Assembly (NCBI GenBank): GCA_022710715.1
Contig: JAKLGJ010000001.1
Span: 298,041-362,040, forward strand
Source of the DNA: Candidatus Omnitrophota bacterium
Lineage (GTDB): Bacteria > Omnitrophota > Gorgyraeia > Gygaellales > Profunditerraquicolaceae
Direction of reading: 5' to 3'
DNA: 64,000 nt
Part shown: positions 7,078 to 63,594 of the stretch, in pieces
Layout: every line of letters starts with the position of its first letter
How positions within the stretch are numbered: the first letter of the stretch is position 1
The notes under the pieces: generated by a model
What the model was told of the DNA's origin: nothing
Databases searched by the model: none
What the model saw: only the letters and a program-made list of their open reading frames with translations
Made by a program: the position numbers and the translations under genes

Positions 7078-8346
7078 ATGAAAGTCAAATTCCACACCCT
7101 CGGCTGCAAGGTGAACCAGTACGAAACCCAGCGCATCCGGGAAGCGTTCCTCGCCCGGGGACTGACCGAAGCTTCCGCCGCGGATAAAGCGGATATCTAT
7201 ATCGTCAATACCTGCACGGTTACCCATAAAGCCGATCGCGAATCGTTATACTGGATCCATCGCAGTCACCGGGAGAATCCCGGAGCTCCGATCATCGTGA
7301 CCGGATGCATGGCCGCTTTCGATCTGAAGCTGCTCAAGGCGCAGGCCGGGGTGCGCTGCGTGGTGGGAAATGAGCGCAAGCTTGAGTTGCCGGATATCTG
7401 CCGCCGGTTTTTGCCGGCATCGCGCCGTAAGCGGGCTGCCGCGATTGGGCCGCCGCCTGCCGGGATCAGCTTTTTCGAAGGGCACACCCGGGCTTTTCTC
7501 AAGATCCAGGACGGTTGCAATAATCGCTGCAGCTACTGCAAGGTGGCTTTGGTCCGGGGAGCCTCGCGCAGCCGGTCGCAGGACGAGATCGTCGACGAAG
7601 CGCGGCAATTGGTCGCGCATGGTTTCCGGGAGATCGTGCTCACCGGGATATGTCTGGGCGCGTACGGCCGGGATGTACAGCCGAAGCAGGATCTCGCCAG
7701 TTTGATCGGCGCGCTGGAAACGCTTCCCGGCCTGGAACGCGTCAGGTTGAGCTCTATCGAAGCCGGGGATGTCACTCCGGGCTTGATCGCGGCGCTGGCG
7801 GGTTCGCGCGTTATGTGCCGGCACCTGCATATTCCTATCCAGAGCGGAGACGATCAGATCCTCAAAGCGATGCGGCGCAGATATACTGCCGCCGATTACG
7901 CCCGGTTGATCCGCAGGATCAGAAAGGCTGTTCCCGGTGTCGCCATCACCACCGATGTGCTGGTGGGATTTCCCGGGGAAGAAGAACGGCATTTTCAGAA
8001 TACCCTTAAACTGGTTCGCGCGATCAAACCTTCCGGCGTGCATATTTTTCCTTACAGCCCGCGTCCGGGCACCGCGGCGTTCGGCTTGAAAGAGCCTTGG
8101 GCCGGCGCGCAGACGGTAAAAGAAAGAATGCGCCGGCTGGAAGCAGCGGCTGAAAAGCTGCGCGTAGCTTACCGGAAGAAATTCCTCGGTCGCACAGTTG
8201 CGGTTTTGTTCGAATCCCGCCTTAAAGAAGACCCGCAATGCTGGGAGGGTCATACCGACACGTACCTGAAGGTGCGCCTGCGCAGCCGCAGGAACCTGGA
8301 GAACCGCACCCTGCAGGTCAGATTGACCCGGGATTGCATTGGTTAA
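7078..8346 (+). CDS. mtaB: tRNA methylthiotransferase of the MiaB/MtaB family (MtaB-like, no obvious TRAM extension)
   Basis: N-terminal MTTase domain (FHTLGCKVNQYET). Radical SAM motif CNNRCSYC. Confidence 0.7.
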   Translation: MKVKFHTLGCKVNQYETQRIREAFLARGLTEASAADKADIYIVNTCTVTHKADRESLYWIHRSHRENPGAPIIVTGCMAAFDLKLLKAQAGVRCVVGNERKLELPDICRRFLPASRRKRAAAIGPPPAGISFFEGHTRAFLKIQDGCNNRCSYCKVALVRGASRSRSQDEIVDEARQLVAHGFREIVLTGICLGAYGRDVQPKQDLASLIGALETLPGLERVRLSSIEAGDVTPGLIAALAGSRVMCRHLHIPIQSGDDQILKAMRRRYTAADYARLIRRIRKAVPGVAITTDVLVGFPGEEERHFQNTLKLVRAIKPSGVHIFPYSPRPGTAAFGLKEPWAGAQTVKERMRRLEAAAEKLRVAYRKKFLGRTVAVLFESRLKEDPQCWEGHTDTYLKVRLRSRRNLENRTLQVRLTRDCIG

Positions 8347-58066: not shown

Positions 58067-59383
58067 ATGAGTAAACGCTTAATCTTAGTTTTGGCACTCG
58101 CGTTGGTCGTCGGCCTTACCGCTGGCGCTTACGCTGAAGTCCAGAATGTCAAAGTCGGCGGCGATATTACCATGGTCGGCGTGACCCGCAGCAACCTCGA
58201 TCTGAACAAAGAAATCATGGGCGACGATGTTCAGCAGGTTGTTAACGCCAAAGGCCTGGCCAGTATCACCAGAGTCAAGATTGATGCCGATCTGACCGAC
58301 AATGTTTCCACCACCGTCAGATTGATCAACGAAAGAGTCTGGGGAAGCGCTGATGAAACCGTCTCCAATTCCGATGTGGACCTGGATCTGGCTTTTGTCG
58401 CTTTCAAGGATTTCCTCAAGGACACCATTACCGTTCCTTTGACCTTGATCGCCGGCCGTCAGGAAATCAGAATCGGCAGCGGTTTGTTGGTTTCTCACCC
58501 GGGTGGAAACCAGGGTAATGTCGGCGCCACCGCGGTTGCTTTACCTCGCGGTATTGGTGATTTGAGCTCCCGTAGAGCGTTCGATGGTATCGCCGGCGTA
58601 TGGAAGTGGAGCGATCAGCTCACTACCACCACCGCTTATGTGAAAGCCGTCGAAGGCGTCATCACCGATGAACATGATACCGATGTGTATGTTGTGGACA
58701 GCACCTTTGATACCGGCAAAATGGGTATGGTTCCTGAACTGTATTATGTAGGTTCAGATGCCAAAAAAGGCCAGGTTAACAATTTCGGCGCCAGAATCAA
58801 CGTCGCTCCTGTTGAGAACCTGAACCTGTCAGCCGAATTCTGCTATCAGACGCAGAAGGGTGTGAACAGACTTACCGGCAAAACCAATCACGCTACCGAC
58901 AACGCAATTCTGCTCGGCGCTAATTTTGCCATGCCGGATGTGGTCTGGGCCCCGTCTTTCGGCCTCGACTATGCCCGTTTGTCCGAGAACTGGAATATTA
59001 TGCATGAAGGCTTGACTCCTGCCGACATCGCTAACTTCCTTTTCGCGAACACCAATTGCACCGTAGTCGGCATCACCGTCAGCGCCAAGCCCAAGGATGA
59101 CTTGAGCTTGAAACTGCGTTATGCCGATTTCACTCTCGTTGAGCCGTTGACCGCAGCCGGAACCATTGCGTATAATGGCGCCGCGTTGACCACCGGTCAG
59201 TCCTATACCATGACCACCAAGAAGCATCTTGGCGCTGAACTCGACCTGGCTCTGGCCTATGACTACACAGAAGATGTGCAGTTCGGCCTGAACTATGGTT
59301 ATTTCAGACCGGGAAAAGCGTTCGATAAGTCGAATCGCAATTCCGCTTCCCAGGTCATTGGTTCAATGAAGGTGTCCTTCTAA
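58067..59383 (+). CDS. Outer-membrane beta-barrel protein (porin-like) with a signal peptide and a C-terminal Phe
   Basis: Strong RBS AAAGGAGGA. Signal peptide LILVLALALVVGLTAGAYA. Alternating amphipathic beta-strand pattern. Ends ...MKVSF. Confidence 0.5.
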   Translation: MSKRLILVLALALVVGLTAGAYAEVQNVKVGGDITMVGVTRSNLDLNKEIMGDDVQQVVNAKGLASITRVKIDADLTDNVSTTVRLINERVWGSADETVSNSDVDLDLAFVAFKDFLKDTITVPLTLIAGRQEIRIGSGLLVSHPGGNQGNVGATAVALPRGIGDLSSRRAFDGIAGVWKWSDQLTTTTAYVKAVEGVITDEHDTDVYVVDSTFDTGKMGMVPELYYVGSDAKKGQVNNFGARINVAPVENLNLSAEFCYQTQKGVNRLTGKTNHATDNAILLGANFAMPDVVWAPSFGLDYARLSENWNIMHEGLTPADIANFLFANTNCTVVGITVSAKPKDDLSLKLRYADFTLVEPLTAAGTIAYNGAALTTGQSYTMTTKKHLGAELDLALAYDYTEDVQFGLNYGYFRPGKAFDKSNRNSASQVIGSMKVSF

Positions 59384-59404
59384 TCGGACCTATGCACTGA
59401 AAAA

Positions 59405-59438
59405 GCCCCTGGGAGAGAAATCTCCCGGGGGTTTTTTA
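59405..59438 (+). terminator. Rho-independent terminator
   Basis: CCCCTGGGAGA-GAAA-TCTCCCGGGGG followed by TTTTTT. Confidence 0.7.
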
Positions 59439-59549
59439 TTCCTGCGCGCGGATCTGCGCGCATTCCTCTCAAGCGCGAAAGCGTATGGTTGAGTTAATTA
59501 AGTTGAGGGGTCAAGTGCGCGCGCATTCAGCCGATAAATAATCTATCCT

Positions 59550-61106
59550 ATGGTCTACCTAGCCATCGTTTACCACATGCACCAGCCGTATTACAAGAAT
59601 CTGCTCAACAACCAGACAGACATGCCCTGGGTGCGTTTGCACGGGATCAAGGATTACCTGGACATGCTGCTGCTGGTGCAGCGGTTCCCCAAGGTGCACC
59701 TGACCATCAACATGGTGCCTTCGCTCATGGAGCAGATCGATGATTACGAGAAGGGGCTGGTCAAGGACCGTTTCCTGGATATTTCCGCCAAACCCGCAGC
59801 CGAACTGAACCAGCAGGAAAAAGATTTCGTGATCAATAATTTCTTCATGATCAACAAAGAGCGGGTGATCGCGCGCTATCCGCGTTACTATGAATTGTAT
59901 TTCATGAAAGAGACCCAGCAGCATTTCAGCGCCCAGGATGTGCTGGATCTGCAGGTTTGGTTCAACCTGGCCTGGTTCGACCCGATGTTCACCGAAGATA
60001 TGCCGGAGCTGCGCAAAGTCATGCGCAAGGCCCGCTTCTTCAATGAGCAGGATAAGAAGACCGTGCTTAAAGCGCAGCTGGATATATTGAAACAGATCCT
60101 GCCGGCTTACCGCAAAGCCATAGCCGAAAAGCAGGTGGAGATCACGGTTACGCCGTATTATCATCCCATCCTGCCGTTGTTGTATAACACGCGTTTGCAG
60201 CTGGAAGCCAATCTCAAGAGCACGCTGCCTCCGGTCACTTTTTCCTATCCCGAAGACGCCCGCCAGCAGATCAACATGGCGGTGGAGTATTTCAAGAATA
60301 AATTCGGGGTCCCTCCCGTAGGCATGTGGCCGTCCGAAGAATCGGTCTGCGAGCATATCGTGCCGTACCTGATGCAGGCCGGGATCAAATGGATCGTTAC
60401 CGATGAAGCCATTCTCTTCAAATCGTTGAAGCGCAAGCGCCGAGATACCAGGCTGCTCTATCAGCCGCATGTCCTGCACCGGGAAGAGGGGGATCTCAAT
60501 ATCATTTTCCGCGACCGCAACCTTTCGGATCTGATCGGATTTGTCTATCCCAACTGGCTGGCGCAGGACGCGGTGAACGATTTCATGGGGCACATCGAAA
60601 ATATCTCCAAGGCGTACAAGGGCAAGGATGTTTTCGTAGCTATCGCGTTGGACGGGGAGAACGCCTGGGAATATTACAAGAACGACGGCCACGATTTCCT
60701 GGAAACTCTGTATCAGCGTTTGTCCGACGCGCCGTTCGTGCAGGCGGTAACCCCGAGCGAATATTTCGAGAAGCATCCTCCGACTGCGCAGATCAAACGG
60801 CTTTCCGCCGGCTCCTGGATTTACGGGGAATTCTCGAAGTGGATCAATAACCCCTATAAGAACAAAGGATGGGAGTACCTGACGTATGCCCGCCAGGCTC
60901 TGCAGCGTCAGATCGATGAGAAGCAACCGGTTTCGGATCTGACCTGGAAACAGATGCACGTGGCAGAGGGCAGCGATTGGTACTGGTGGCTGGGGGAGGA
61001 CTACCCCGGTTACTTCGACAGCCTTTTCCGCATGCATCTGTCCAACTTCTACACCATGCTCGGCCGCGACGTCCCCGACTATCTGAAACGCCCCATCTCT
61101 CCCTAA
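59550..61106 (+). CDS. Glycoside hydrolase family 57 (alpha-glucan-active, branching-enzyme- or amylase-like)
   Basis: N-terminus HQPYY...HGIKDYLDM, typical of GH57. Confidence 0.8.
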   Translation: MVYLAIVYHMHQPYYKNLLNNQTDMPWVRLHGIKDYLDMLLLVQRFPKVHLTINMVPSLMEQIDDYEKGLVKDRFLDISAKPAAELNQQEKDFVINNFFMINKERVIARYPRYYELYFMKETQQHFSAQDVLDLQVWFNLAWFDPMFTEDMPELRKVMRKARFFNEQDKKTVLKAQLDILKQILPAYRKAIAEKQVEITVTPYYHPILPLLYNTRLQLEANLKSTLPPVTFSYPEDARQQINMAVEYFKNKFGVPPVGMWPSEESVCEHIVPYLMQAGIKWIVTDEAILFKSLKRKRRDTRLLYQPHVLHREEGDLNIIFRDRNLSDLIGFVYPNWLAQDAVNDFMGHIENISKAYKGKDVFVAIALDGENAWEYYKNDGHDFLETLYQRLSDAPFVQAVTPSEYFEKHPPTAQIKRLSAGSWIYGEFSKWINNPYKNKGWEYLTYARQALQRQIDEKQPVSDLTWKQMHVAEGSDWYWWLGEDYPGYFDSLFRMHLSNFYTMLGRDVPDYLKRPISP

Positions 61107-61185: not shown

Positions 61186-61316
61186 GATCGGCTCGATCTT
61201 GCCCTGTCCGTCGCTTTCGTCTTGCGTTTTAACTGCTTGACAGCATTCGGCTTTTATGTTATAAAAGTATCAAGATATGCTAGTCTTCGTTCCAACCCCA
61301 CAATATTTAGTGTGTC

Positions 61317-61883
61317 ATGGATAAAAAAGATATTTACGAACACTTAGCAAAGATTTACCTCGACAACTCCTCAACCTCCACCGCCAAGAAGAAGCAGGAA
61401 ACCCTTGAAGACTACAGGCTTTTCATCTTTATCGGCATCGCCATCCTGGTGGTGCTGGGGCTGCTTTTCCTGATTCCGTTTTCCCGGCACAAACCCGTTC
61501 GCACAGAGAACCTTATCGTCCTGGCTCCGGACGCGATCCGGCTTTCCTACAATCTGCATCCAGCCAAAAAAGAGATCTATTCTTTCGACCTTCAGAAGGC
61601 CAATCTAAGCAAATTCAACGTGTTAGGGTTTGCCTTGAAAAAAGACCACTACGCTGATACAATATCCTTGCGTGTCGAATTGGTCAATGCTTTCAATGAG
61701 AAATCGGAGATCTATATCAGGGATATCCCTACGACCTGGAAAGAATACAAGATCCTTTTCACCGAGTTCAAGTCCATAAGCAACTGGTCTGAAATGTCTT
61801 CGCTTTCATTTGTGATCGAAGAGTGGAACACCAAGGAAAATTCCGGCGAGATACTGGTGGACAACGTCCGGTTCTTTAAGTAA
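61317..61883 (+). CDS. Hypothetical single-pass membrane protein with a ~120-aa beta-rich extracytoplasmic or cytoplasmic domain (low GC)
   Basis: ORF with one TM helix (LFIFIGIAILVVLGLLFLIPF). No family recognised. Confidence 0.4.
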   Translation: MDKKDIYEHLAKIYLDNSSTSTAKKKQETLEDYRLFIFIGIAILVVLGLLFLIPFSRHKPVRTENLIVLAPDAIRLSYNLHPAKKEIYSFDLQKANLSKFNVLGFALKKDHYADTISLRVELVNAFNEKSEIYIRDIPTTWKEYKILFTEFKSISNWSEMSSLSFVIEEWNTKENSGEILVDNVRFFK

Positions 61884-61916: not shown

Positions 61917-63044
61917 ATGCGCATAATCGCCATCGCGAACCAAAAGGGAGGCTGCGGAAAAACCACTACCGCGGTGAATCTGGCTGCCGCACTGGCAGCT
62001 AATGACAAGAAGGTTTTAGTCATAGACCTCGACCCCCAGGCGCATGCTACAGCAGGTTTGAATATCAAGGCGGATCAGAGTATTTACAATGTGCTTTCCA
62101 AGCTCACCCATAAACATTCCACGCTGGCCGATATCATCAAGAACGTGGGACCTAATTTCGACATCGCTCCTTCAAGCATCGTTTTGAGCGCGCTGGAACA
62201 GGAACTTTCCGGTGAGATCGGAAGAGAGTCGCGCCTGTGGGATACGCTGCAGGAATTTAAGGGCACCTACGATTACGTGTTGATCGATTGCCCTCCGAAT
62301 TTAGGCTTGTTGACCATCAACGCCATCCGGGCCACGGATGAGATCCTTATTCCGGTGGAAGCCAGCCGGTTCGCCATTTCCGGTATCAGCCAGTTAACCG
62401 ATATCATCAATCTGGTGCGCGACCGTTTGAACCATCTGGTTACTTTCCGGGTGCTGGTGGTGAATTTCGATTCCCGGCTGCGTCATTCATTCACCATGCT
62501 GGATGTGATCAAGAACACCTTCAAGAACCGCATGTTCGGGACCATCGTGCACGTTAACGTCAAGCTCAAGGAAGCCCAGAACAACGGCACGCACATTTTC
62601 CTGTATGACAAATACTGCCGCGGCGCCAAAGATTATTACAGCCTTTCGCGCGAAATGATCACCATGGATAAGGGCGGCATGGTCGATGTCACTCCGGCAA
62701 CGCGCACGCGGGCCAAGCCGATCGTGACCATGGACACTCTGGAAAAGAAGATGGAAACGATCCTGAAGGAAGAGCTGCCCAAGATCAAGCTGAAAGAAGT
62801 GCTGCTTACGCTCAAGGCCCAGGACGCCAAAGACGTGTTTGTGGCCGGCGATTTCAACGGCTGGAAGACCGACGCCAGCTCGCGCATGGAATTAAAAGAC
62901 GGCACCTGGCGCAAGAAGATCAGCCTGGCCCAGGGCAAATACCATTATCGTTTTGTCAAGGACGGGGACTGGGTCGAAGATCCGGATAATCCGCAAAAAG
63001 AGATGAATCCTTACGGACAGATGGACTCGCTTATCGAGGTGTAA
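61917..63044 (+). CDS. ParA/MinD-family deviant Walker A ATPase fused to a C-terminal CBM48 / AMPK-beta-type glycogen-binding domain
   Basis: N-terminus IAIANQKGGCGKTTTAVNLAAALA (KGGxGKT deviant Walker A), a ParA-like core of about 250 aa, a linker, then VFVAGDFNGWKTDASSRMELKDGTWRKKISLAQGKYHYRFVKDGDWVEDPDNP (GBD/CBM48 hallmark). Confidence 0.75.
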   Translation: MRIIAIANQKGGCGKTTTAVNLAAALAANDKKVLVIDLDPQAHATAGLNIKADQSIYNVLSKLTHKHSTLADIIKNVGPNFDIAPSSIVLSALEQELSGEIGRESRLWDTLQEFKGTYDYVLIDCPPNLGLLTINAIRATDEILIPVEASRFAISGISQLTDIINLVRDRLNHLVTFRVLVVNFDSRLRHSFTMLDVIKNTFKNRMFGTIVHVNVKLKEAQNNGTHIFLYDKYCRGAKDYYSLSREMITMDKGGMVDVTPATRTRAKPIVTMDTLEKKMETILKEELPKIKLKEVLLTLKAQDAKDVFVAGDFNGWKTDASSRMELKDGTWRKKISLAQGKYHYRFVKDGDWVEDPDNPQKEMNPYGQMDSLIEV

Positions 63045-63045
63045 G

Positions 63046-63510
63046 ATGGTGAAGAAAAAAGCCAAGAAACCAGCGAAGAAATCGATCAAGAAAAAAGTGG
63101 TGAAGAAGAAACCTGCAGCGAAGAAAAAACCGGTAGCGAAGAAGAAACTTGCACGCAAGCCGGTAAAGAAACTTACGGTAAAGAAGAAACCGGCGGTGAA
63201 GAAGAAGCTGCTGGCGGCCAGGAAAAAGCCGACAGCCCAGAAGCGGCCCGCGCTCAAGAAATACGAGGGCATTCTGGTCGGCGAGATCACTCATTATTTC
63301 CCGCATGTCAACGCGGCAGTGGTGAAACTGAAAGTGCCTCTGTCGGTGGGGGAGATGATCAAAGTTAAAGGCCACACCACGGACTTCACCCAGAAAGTTA
63401 CTTCCATACAGATCGATCGCACCGCATTGCCGCAGGCCAAACCCGGCGATGAGATCGGCTTACAGGTCGGCTCGCGGGTGCGTCGCGGCGACGTGGTCAC
63501 CAAGCTATAA
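63046..63510 (+). CDS. Lysine-rich, histone-H1-like KKP/AKK-repeat protein with a C-terminal ~80-aa beta-barrel-like domain. Its start overlaps the ParA-CBM48 stop.
   Basis: N-terminal 80 aa are about 50% Lys with a K-K-K-P-A/V periodicity. C-terminus YEGILVGEITHYFPHVNAAVVKLKVPLSVGEMIKVKGHTTDF...GDEIGLQVGSRVRRGDVV. Confidence 0.55.
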   Translation: MVKKKAKKPAKKSIKKKVVKKKPAAKKKPVAKKKLARKPVKKLTVKKKPAVKKKLLAARKKPTAQKRPALKKYEGILVGEITHYFPHVNAAVVKLKVPLSVGEMIKVKGHTTDFTQKVTSIQIDRTALPQAKPGDEIGLQVGSRVRRGDVVTKL

Positions 63511-63557
63511 GTTATACACAGGCAGTCCCGGACGCCCTGTGCATAACTCGCATTGTG

Positions 63558-63594
63558 GAAACCCGGTTTATTACACAAACCGGGTTTCTTCTTT
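63558..63594 (+). terminator. Rho-independent terminator
   Basis: GAAACCCGGTTT-ATTACAC-AAACCGGGTTTC followed by TTCTTT. Confidence 0.6.

Follow-up and report, generated by a model that had tools for sequence, protein, structure and literature searches.

Near the downstream end of the 64,000-nucleotide stretch of an Omnitrophota genome analysed here (contig JAKLGJ010000001.1, positions 298,041 to 362,040 of the forward strand; hereafter the window), an open reading frame (ORF) of 154 amino acids encodes a protein, called K-barrel in the following, in which a lysine-rich N-terminal tail is joined to a small beta-barrel. Its gene comes third in a tightly packed series, after those of a membrane protein of 188 amino acids (TM188) and of a ParA-type ATPase fused to a glycogen-binding domain (ParA::CBM48). 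The K-barrel ORF is a real gene with a two-part architecture and a strict gene linkage. A preliminary description, made from the sequence, had proposed that it encodes the partner of the ATPase or a nucleoid adaptor.

In the window TM188, ParA::CBM48 and K-barrel look like one three-gene transcription unit, with spacers of 33 nt and 1 nt between the genes (Table 1). The promoter-like site in front of TM188 was read off the sequence; it was not listed by the promoter scan, which demands a T as the sixth base of the -10 hexamer. The operon probably ends at the terminator-like hairpin behind K-barrel. The ParA stop codon TAA (63042-63044), a single G (63045) and the K-barrel ATG (63046-63048) succeed each other in tight spacing without overlap, so that the ATGGTGA-type overlap of start and stop codons given in the preliminary description is incorrect. 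Two genes precede the unit, and the GH57 enzyme encoded by the second groups by size with GH57 branching enzymes and AmyC. Unrelated housekeeping genes occupy the DNA further upstream of the porin gene.

Table 1. Features of the K-barrel locus; positions are those of the window.
Feature	Position	Strand	Evidence
Outer-membrane porin-like protein (Alginate_exp) with signal peptide; first gene of block	58067..59383	+	Pfam Alginate_exp E=7.7e-13
Cytoplasmic GH57 alpha-glucan enzyme; second gene of block	59550..61106	+	Glyco_hydro_57 E=6e-65
Promoter-like TTGACA - 17 nt - TATAAA, 52 nt upstream of TM188 gene	61237..61265	+	consensus match only
TM188, 188-amino-acid membrane protein	61317..61883	+	conservation, sub-threshold CBM matches
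ParA::CBM48 fusion	61917..63044	+	Pfam, Walker A, PDB relative
GAGG Shine-Dalgarno-like site within ParA gene end, 6 nt before K-barrel ATG	63036..63039	+	read off sequence
Lysine-tailed barrel gene (K-barrel)	63046..63510	+	ORF, 154 amino acids
Polylysine tail, residues 1-72	63046..63261	+	composition, AlphaFold2, repeat analysis, orthologue comparison
Six-stranded beta-barrel, residues 73-154, and stop codon	63262..63510	+	AlphaFold2, Foldseek, invariant columns
Terminator-like hairpin, 13-bp stem and T-rich tract, 47 nt past K-barrel stop	63557..63589	+	consensus match only

The tail (residues 1-72) contains 33 lysines, three arginines and no acidic residue, which gives it a net charge of +36. 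Lysine and arginine together account for a fraction of 0.50 of its residues, compared with 0.13 in residues 73-154, and outside the tail the composition is ordinary. With the lysine share of 5.4 % found in the long ORFs of the window, the probability of encountering at least 33 lysines in 72 residues is about 5e-23, and a six-frame scan of the window met this density in the K-barrel tail only. The tail is also rich in alanine, valine and proline, arranged with the lysines in loose KKKP(A/V)(A/V)KKK units. At the DNA level (63052..63206) Tandem Repeats Finder detects 18-nt and 12-nt units present in 2.3-2.9 copies with a 79-83 % match, and the lysine autocorrelation has its maxima at lags 5-6. 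The periodicity is real, but weak; of the lysine-rich N-terminus of about 80 residues with a KKP periodicity announced in the preliminary description, the lysine content is confirmed and the repeat survives in attenuated form. In an AlphaFold2 model built on 48 homologues residues 1-72 have no secondary structure and a predicted local distance difference test score (pLDDT) of 53-63, in keeping with the disorder and the charge that had been anticipated. The minus strand bears two phenylalanine-rich ORFs (62892..63290; 63031..63375) that mirror the lysine codons.

The tails of 82 orthologues vary in length from 38 to 109 amino acids and consist of 42 % K, 6 % R, 11 % A, 7 % V and 6 % P, acidic and aromatic residues being almost absent. 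Their extreme N-terminus follows a semi-conserved M-A-L-K-K-K consensus. Beyond it, the mean frequency of the most common residue is 0.37 (residues 9-72) versus 0.78 in the barrel. Such a pattern is a signature of selection for charge and disorder and suits non-specific binding to polyanions. Indeed, since charge and disorder are kept without sequence, such binding fits better than a specific ATPase-docking motif. A likeness to histone H1, Chlamydia Hc1 and Bordetella BpH1 had also been pointed out; it holds for the Lys/Ala/Pro-rich composition but does not extend to membership of a curated histone-like family. K-barrel reaches only 14.9 bits against NF038053 (hist_H1_lk_Burk; cut-off 80), and the Pfam search reported no histone-like family for the protein. 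Membership of the Hc1/BpH1 family was rejected on this score, the likeness being compositional only.

The second half of the protein is a confidently predicted domain: residues 76-153 form six strands with pLDDT >90 in the same AlphaFold2 model. The closest fold in the PDB is the C-terminal domain of a Geobacillus U32 peptidase (4he5/4he6), with a target TM-score of 0.81-0.88 in Foldseek; the superposition on 4he5 has a target TM-score of 0.88 and a root-mean-square deviation of 1.1 A over 80 columns. Next in the ranking is domain 2 of EF-Tu, EF1A and IF2, which vindicates the EF-Tu-domain-2-like barrel of the preliminary description. Sequence profiles support the assignment, weakly but consistently. 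The barrel matches PF03144 with E=0.005 and 17.6 bits, under the gathering score of 30.3, and the NCBIfam elongation factor 1-alpha subfamily NF008969 with E=2e-4; a profile search of the PDB returns elongation factors through their domain 2 only, and PF16325 was not reported for K-barrel in the Pfam search. Among 48 sequences, 19 columns of the barrel are invariant and give rise to the motifs THYFP, KGHTTD, S.Q and SRVR..D. This high conservation implies that selection acts on the protein.

The barrel belongs to a much wider family. Its profile, run against 1.84 billion representative proteins, matches 2944 clusters at E<=0.001. Among them are standalone barrels of 80-90 amino acids from bacteria of the candidate phyla radiation (CPR), DPANN archaea and Thermodesulfobacteriota, which bear NCBI names such as ‘translation elongation factor-like protein’ or ‘U32 family peptidase C-terminal domain-containing protein’. 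Two of them (P0245 and P0250, 83-84 amino acids) match the Omnitrophota barrel profile at 5e-25 to 7e-25, and P0250 itself passes PF16325 (29.2 versus a cut-off of 28.2). The motifs HYF, G.TTD, S.Q and VR..D of the Omnitrophota barrels are largely shared family-wide, which suggests that the barrels may have a common ligand.

The family also includes tandem barrels and TIR-barrel-barrel fusions. Four proteins (P0124, P0140, P0165 and P0220) carry a tandem barrel pair behind an N-terminal TIR domain (TIR_2 E=3e-31 in P0124), suggesting that TIR-type proteins, possibly with a role in defence, can use the barrel as a module for sensing or binding. Several other branches have K- or R-rich N-terminal tails of their own. 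One of them (L093, L097-L101, L114 and L127 in alignment A3) consists of K-tailed barrels with a Pro-rich C-terminal extension and an invariant KF[LFMI]xF end. Its neighbours vary and comprise radical-SAM-like, alpha/beta-hydrolase-like and prolyl-tRNA synthetase-like genes, with no ParA nearby; in L097 an additional standalone barrel lies 2.4 kb downstream (7838..8098). Moreover, a DUF763 gene (L089 4942..6033; L091 3761..4837) is found directly or almost directly downstream of two standalone barrels of 85 amino acids that come from different sources, one of them an Altiarchaeales-type contig. DUF763 and the standalone barrel form a possible conserved pairing.

Close relatives of K-barrel have a much narrower distribution. 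A search of a set of 5.8 billion proteins with the barrel alone yielded 263 proteins, nearly all from Omnitrophota metagenome-assembled genomes (MAGs), all of 103-147 amino acids and all with K-rich N-terminal tails. Scanning a representative genome of each species gave 539 stretches that code for a relative; the best 80 of these and four loci from exact look-ups made up the synteny set, on which the proteins of the window were mapped. Two loci were too short to assess, and in one (L076) the sequence breaks off within the block, behind an inserted gene. In all of the 81 assessable loci, nearly all of them from Omnitrophota MAGs, the K-barrel orthologue lies downstream of a fused ParA::CBM48, and the order TM188, in-frame ParA::CBM48, K-barrel is found wherever the upstream DNA is long enough. 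In 79 related loci the two domains are fused in frame. Identity to the window proteins amounts to 60-79 % for the barrel half of K-barrel, 59-84 % for ParA, 29-55 % for TM188 and 29-51 % for the porin. Upstream, the GH57 gene (48-66 % identical) occurs in nearly all loci that extend far enough and the Alginate_exp porin gene in most related loci. Behind the block the gene content changes from locus to locus, so that it is the block itself that is kept. Given that the linkage is complete across substantial divergence, it is a conserved property and not an accident of this window. The orthologues are thus not confined to unrelated contexts, a distribution which the preliminary description had said would speak against its proposal. 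As a separate observation, an outer-membrane porin travels with cytoplasmic alpha-glucan genes (58067..61106) in most related loci.

In the searches made here, both the K-tailed orthologue and the ParA::CBM48 fusion were found only in Omnitrophota-type MAGs. A search with the CBM48 half returned Omnitrophota fragments only, too few to reveal a ParA::CBM48 without K-barrel. K-barrel very probably functions as part of a ParA::CBM48 operon that is specific to Omnitrophota, and it has the general appearance of a ParA partner. The complete block also occurs in MAGs labelled Babeliales, Planctomycetales, Margulisiibacteriota or Deltaproteobacteria (L007, L008, L011, L035 and L055); these are probably errors of binning or labelling and not true occurrences outside the phylum.

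The upstream gene had been taken for a ParA-CBM48 fusion, and this is fully borne out. The ATPase occupies residues 1 to about 255 (AAA_31 E=1.6e-57, 194.7 bits; CbiA 3e-22) and contains the deviant Walker A motif KGGCGKTT; a linker of about 40 residues separates it from a glycogen-binding domain of the CBM48/AMPK-beta type at about 297-375 (AMPK1_CBM E=3.1e-12, 47 bits versus a cut-off of 26.8). The best solved relative is the chromosome-segregation ParA of Myxococcus xanthus (8RAY, E=2.2e-53). The PRNVRLSEA motif of Soj/ParA is replaced by HVNVKLKEAQ (residues 212-221, 62550..62580), invariant in 73 full-length orthologues, in which His212 and Gln221 are absolutely conserved and subfamily-specific. 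R238 is a DNA-binding residue of M. xanthus ParA (PMC12462528), and the numbering of the 8RAY construct (residues 21-274) was used to place it. It aligns with K216 of ParA::CBM48, which is K or R in 70 of the 73 orthologues, and K218, K232, R235 and K238 are invariant in all of them. ParA::CBM48 therefore probably keeps a non-specific DNA-binding surface of its own. The idea that it has lost DNA binding and that K-barrel replaces this activity found no support, K216 and the four invariant basic residues being kept. Within the linker a moderately conserved, charged and helix-like segment (about 272-295, 62730..62800) reads LEKKMETILKEELPKI...; the remaining linker is variable in length and sequence.

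The first gene of the unit encodes a protein of several parts: an N-terminal peptide MDKKDIYEHLAKIYLD, a lysine run, one transmembrane (TM) helix and a C-terminal beta-sandwich. TM188 lies directly upstream of ParA::CBM48 in every locus having the sequence. Across 62 orthologues the peptide (residues 1-16, 61317..61364) is near-invariant, with a top-residue frequency of 0.90, compared with 0.64 in the beta-sandwich and 0.35 in the TM helix. ParA-binding motifs described so far are short and sequence-specific, with hydrophobic residues around a central basic residue (PMC12462528); MDKKDIYEHLAKIYLD, with its hydrophobic residues around a central lysine, resembles them. As it is followed by a lysine run and a TM helix, the peptide should face the cytoplasm. 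The C-terminal domain gives sub-threshold matches to CBM_11, CBM_17_28 and SGBP_B_XBD, and this CBM-like domain may face the periplasm. A single-sequence AlphaFold2 model of TM188 is of low confidence (pLDDT 61) and consists of a helix, the TM helix and then eight strands; a profile search of the PDB gave no match.

How could these proteins work together? We give an even chance to the interpretation that K-barrel, encoded by the last gene of a three-gene operon, is a polyanion-binding accessory subunit of a ParA-type system acting on cytoplasmic alpha-glucan (glycogen). Its gene is kept beside ParA::CBM48 in all orthologous loci, hence a possible role in an undescribed glycogen-positioning machine. 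In such a machine ParA::CBM48 would hold its alpha-glucan cargo directly through CBM48, judging from the domain family, and the basic residues retained in the ATPase suggest that it would bind the nucleoid as an ATP dimer. The K-tail, by its composition and by analogy with PhaF, PhaM and AlgP, would serve as a long non-specific polycationic arm on a polyanion, most plausibly nucleoid DNA. The conserved barrel would provide a specific contact, either to ParA::CBM48, to a second copy of itself or to a component of the granule. More speculatively, the lysine run of the M-A-L-K-K-K start may activate ATP hydrolysis in the way known from the basic N-termini of ParB, ParG, MinE and McdB. Stimulation by the K-tail is possible, and TM188 competes for this role. 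For K-barrel, DNA binding, ParA contact and any effect on ATP hydrolysis are inferences. The most complete version would be an Omnitrophota system for positioning or partitioning glycogen, composed of an ATPase gripping its cargo with CBM48, a barrel providing nucleoid contact and/or activation, and TM188, with its invariant N-terminal peptide and CBM-like ectodomain, as a second docking site, the barrel being a new ParA partner with a translation-factor fold; we put it forward as tentative and somewhat improbable.

Several observations count against a polyanion-binding accessory subunit and ParA partner. The tail is conserved in composition alone, its sequence not being kept across orthologues. 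Since ParA::CBM48 retains candidate DNA-binding basic residues, there is no obvious need for a separate nucleoid adaptor. Judged by sequence conservation, TM188 is a better candidate than K-barrel for a specific ParA-docking peptide, and non-specific DNA binding is better assigned to the K-tail. The ParA and barrel genes are 10-80 nt apart in about 31 loci, and in about 46 others one or two small genes lie in an interval of 330-880 nt. Because genes intervene in about half of the loci, translational coupling, and with it the stoichiometric co-expression deduced in the preliminary description, is not a conserved feature. All linked loci come from one phylum, and part of the synteny may simply be inherited. 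Finally, the neighbourhoods of distant branches were examined in 80 metagenome loci and five exact look-ups, and ParA, CBM48 and GH57 were all not found within 5 kb of the distant barrels, K/R-tailed branches included. Since distant K/R-tailed and standalone barrels have no nearby ParA, the tail-plus-barrel module is not intrinsically a ParA adaptor; it exists independently of ParA and has a ParA-free function. The Omnitrophota branch is the sole barrel branch found tied to ParA::CBM48. The proposed ParA partner or nucleoid adaptor is thus partly supported: the linkage and the architecture speak for it, the coupling has gone, and the unconserved tail sequence, the ParA-free relatives and the rivalry of TM188 weaken it further.

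The usual insert between the ParA and barrel genes encodes a multi-pass membrane protein of about 107 amino acids with the conserved start ...EGKFFA.ISY..FLC..., which is not present in the window (L004 4665..4988; L005 4603..4929; L076 55..390). In L076 a nitroreductase-like gene is also inserted between ParA::CBM48 and the barrel gene. The 107-amino-acid ORF (L004, L005) was considered as the true partner and set aside, because its product spans the membrane several times and the ORF is missing from the window and about 31 other loci. At the other end of the barrel gene, ORFs of 59-61 amino acids directly follow or overlap its stop codon (L076 1341..1526; L004 5354..5539; L006 5410..5771), one of them with a zinc-ribbon-like CxxC...CxxC spacing. 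In the window the terminator-like hairpin occupies this place.

The alternative that survives best sees in K-barrel an autonomous nucleic-acid binder, either histone-like or, through an RNA-binding barrel of the translation type, associated with RNA or the ribosome, whose place after ParA::CBM48 would be merely inherited. The fold class that unites domain 2 of EF-Tu, the C2 domain of IF2 and the U32 C-terminal domain is typically associated with RNA. The sheer size of the barrel family, the standalone ‘translation elongation factor-like’ members in the unrelated contexts of CPR, DPANN and Thermodesulfobacteriota, the K/R-tailed branches devoid of any ParA and the family-wide motifs pointing to a common ligand all agree with such a function, as does the tolerance of insertions between the two genes. 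However, a merely inherited position accords poorly with a linkage kept in 81 of 81 loci despite deep divergence and variable flanks of the block, with the promoter-to-terminator unit that K-barrel shares with ParA at 1-nt spacing in the window, and with the restriction of both genes to the same phylum in the searches made here. We regard an autonomous binder as rather unlikely.

An McdB/ParB-like partner would be a more specific alternative. Here the basic N-terminus of K-barrel would dock on the ParA::CBM48 dimer and stimulate its ATPase, coupling of the genes ensuring a fixed stoichiometry. The layout resembles that of type Ib partners such as ParG, the gene stands beside that of the ATPase in every orthologous locus, and the M-A-L-K-K-K start is semi-conserved. 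A disordered basic N-terminus is, moreover, a published hallmark of such partners (PMC10241942). However, the stop and start codons do not overlap and genes intervene in about half of the loci. Known ParA-binding motifs are short and sequence-specific (PMC12462528), whereas the tail sequence is unconserved (0.37), and similar tails occur on relatives with no nearby ParA. The cargo-linking role usual for a partner would be redundant with an ATPase that carries a cargo-binding domain already, and the N-terminal peptide of TM188 is the stronger candidate. On balance a partner of this kind is clearly unlikely. The last alternative, a chance open frame in low-complexity AAG/AAA DNA, which does open long ORFs on both strands, is refuted and retains next to no probability, as hundreds of homologues share 60-79 % identity in the barrel half, with its 19 invariant columns, the fold is confident and has solved structural relatives, and the length class and composition of the tail are kept in 82 orthologues.

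ATPases of the ParA/MinD family are general positioning engines of bacteria, and their partners are very diverse and often unidentified. A 2023 research paper and two reviews of 2024 and 2025 on ParA/MinD and organelle positioning name chromosomes, plasmids, carboxysomes, flagella, chemotaxis arrays, divisomes, polyhydroxybutyrate (PHB) and polyphosphate as cargoes. Glycogen is unmentioned in all three, and targeted searches for literature linking ParA to glycogen or CBM48 found nothing relevant. The operon described here is a concrete and testable candidate for tying a neutral storage polysaccharide to the nucleoid and sharing it between daughter cells. It also provides a first functional context for the very large and unannotated family of ‘translation elongation factor-like’ barrels. 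The Omnitrophota hosts are uncultured nanobacteria; the proteins are small and soluble, and thus amenable to work in vitro or in E. coli.

Partners of ParA/MinD ATPases contact and stimulate their ATPase via a positively charged disordered N-terminus (PMC10241942), a hallmark the preliminary description had rightly invoked. K-barrel shares this N-terminus and the adjacency of its gene to that of the ATPase (81 of 81 loci); as for a sequence-conserved ATPase-binding motif, its tail has the semi-conserved M-A-L-K-K-K only, the remainder standing at 0.37. McdB has a positively charged disordered N-terminal region and an invariant C-terminal tryptophan (PMC13052382). The resemblance lies in a small protein with a basic disordered N-terminal region, encoded beside an orphan ParA-type ATPase with a non-DNA cargo. 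However, K-barrel is unrelated to McdB in sequence and fold, its tail is far longer and more charged (+36), and the ATPase carries the cargo-binding CBM48 itself. K-barrel has no tryptophan anywhere (its C-terminal end is ...GDVVTKL), and no coiled coil or helices are predicted. Membership of the McdB family was rejected for want of the C-terminal tryptophan and the predicted coiled coil. It was likewise rejected for ParB, the ParB/Srx CTPase domain and the helix-turn-helix both being missing (no Pfam or NCBIfam match at E<=0.1).

Type Ib partners such as ParG have a flexible basic N-terminal tail and a small folded C-terminal domain and are encoded downstream of their ATPase. ParG, omega and other type Ib systems thus resemble the present operon in gene order, ATPase first and small partner second, and in the two-part build of the partner. 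However, the folded domain of K-barrel is a beta-barrel and not a ribbon-helix-helix, and its tail is without a conserved specific motif containing arginine; the tail and arginine finger of ParG are discussed in PMC12462528. Centromere repeats did not come to light either, although no search was aimed at them. The Lys/Ala/Pro-rich, histone-H1-like segments of PhaF, PhaM and AlgP attach granules of PHB or polyphosphate to the nucleoid in the absence of ParA (PMC13052382, PMC9239181) and are, as in K-barrel, joined to a second module. In these proteins, however, the basic segment is C-terminal and ParA is not used, whereas the K-barrel tail is N-terminal, and there is no homology between them. 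The cargo would also differ, being glycogen bound by the ATPase and not by K-barrel.

As to the barrel, domain 2 of EF-Tu, EF1A and IF2 (PF03144) has the same topology and is recovered by weak profile matches restricted to that domain. K-barrel, however, is without a GTPase domain, and nothing indicates a role in translation. The closest kin are the U32 C-terminal domain (PF16325) and the standalone barrels, with which it shares both the fold and demonstrable sequence homology; what the Omnitrophota branch adds to them is the polylysine tail and the linkage to ParA::CBM48.

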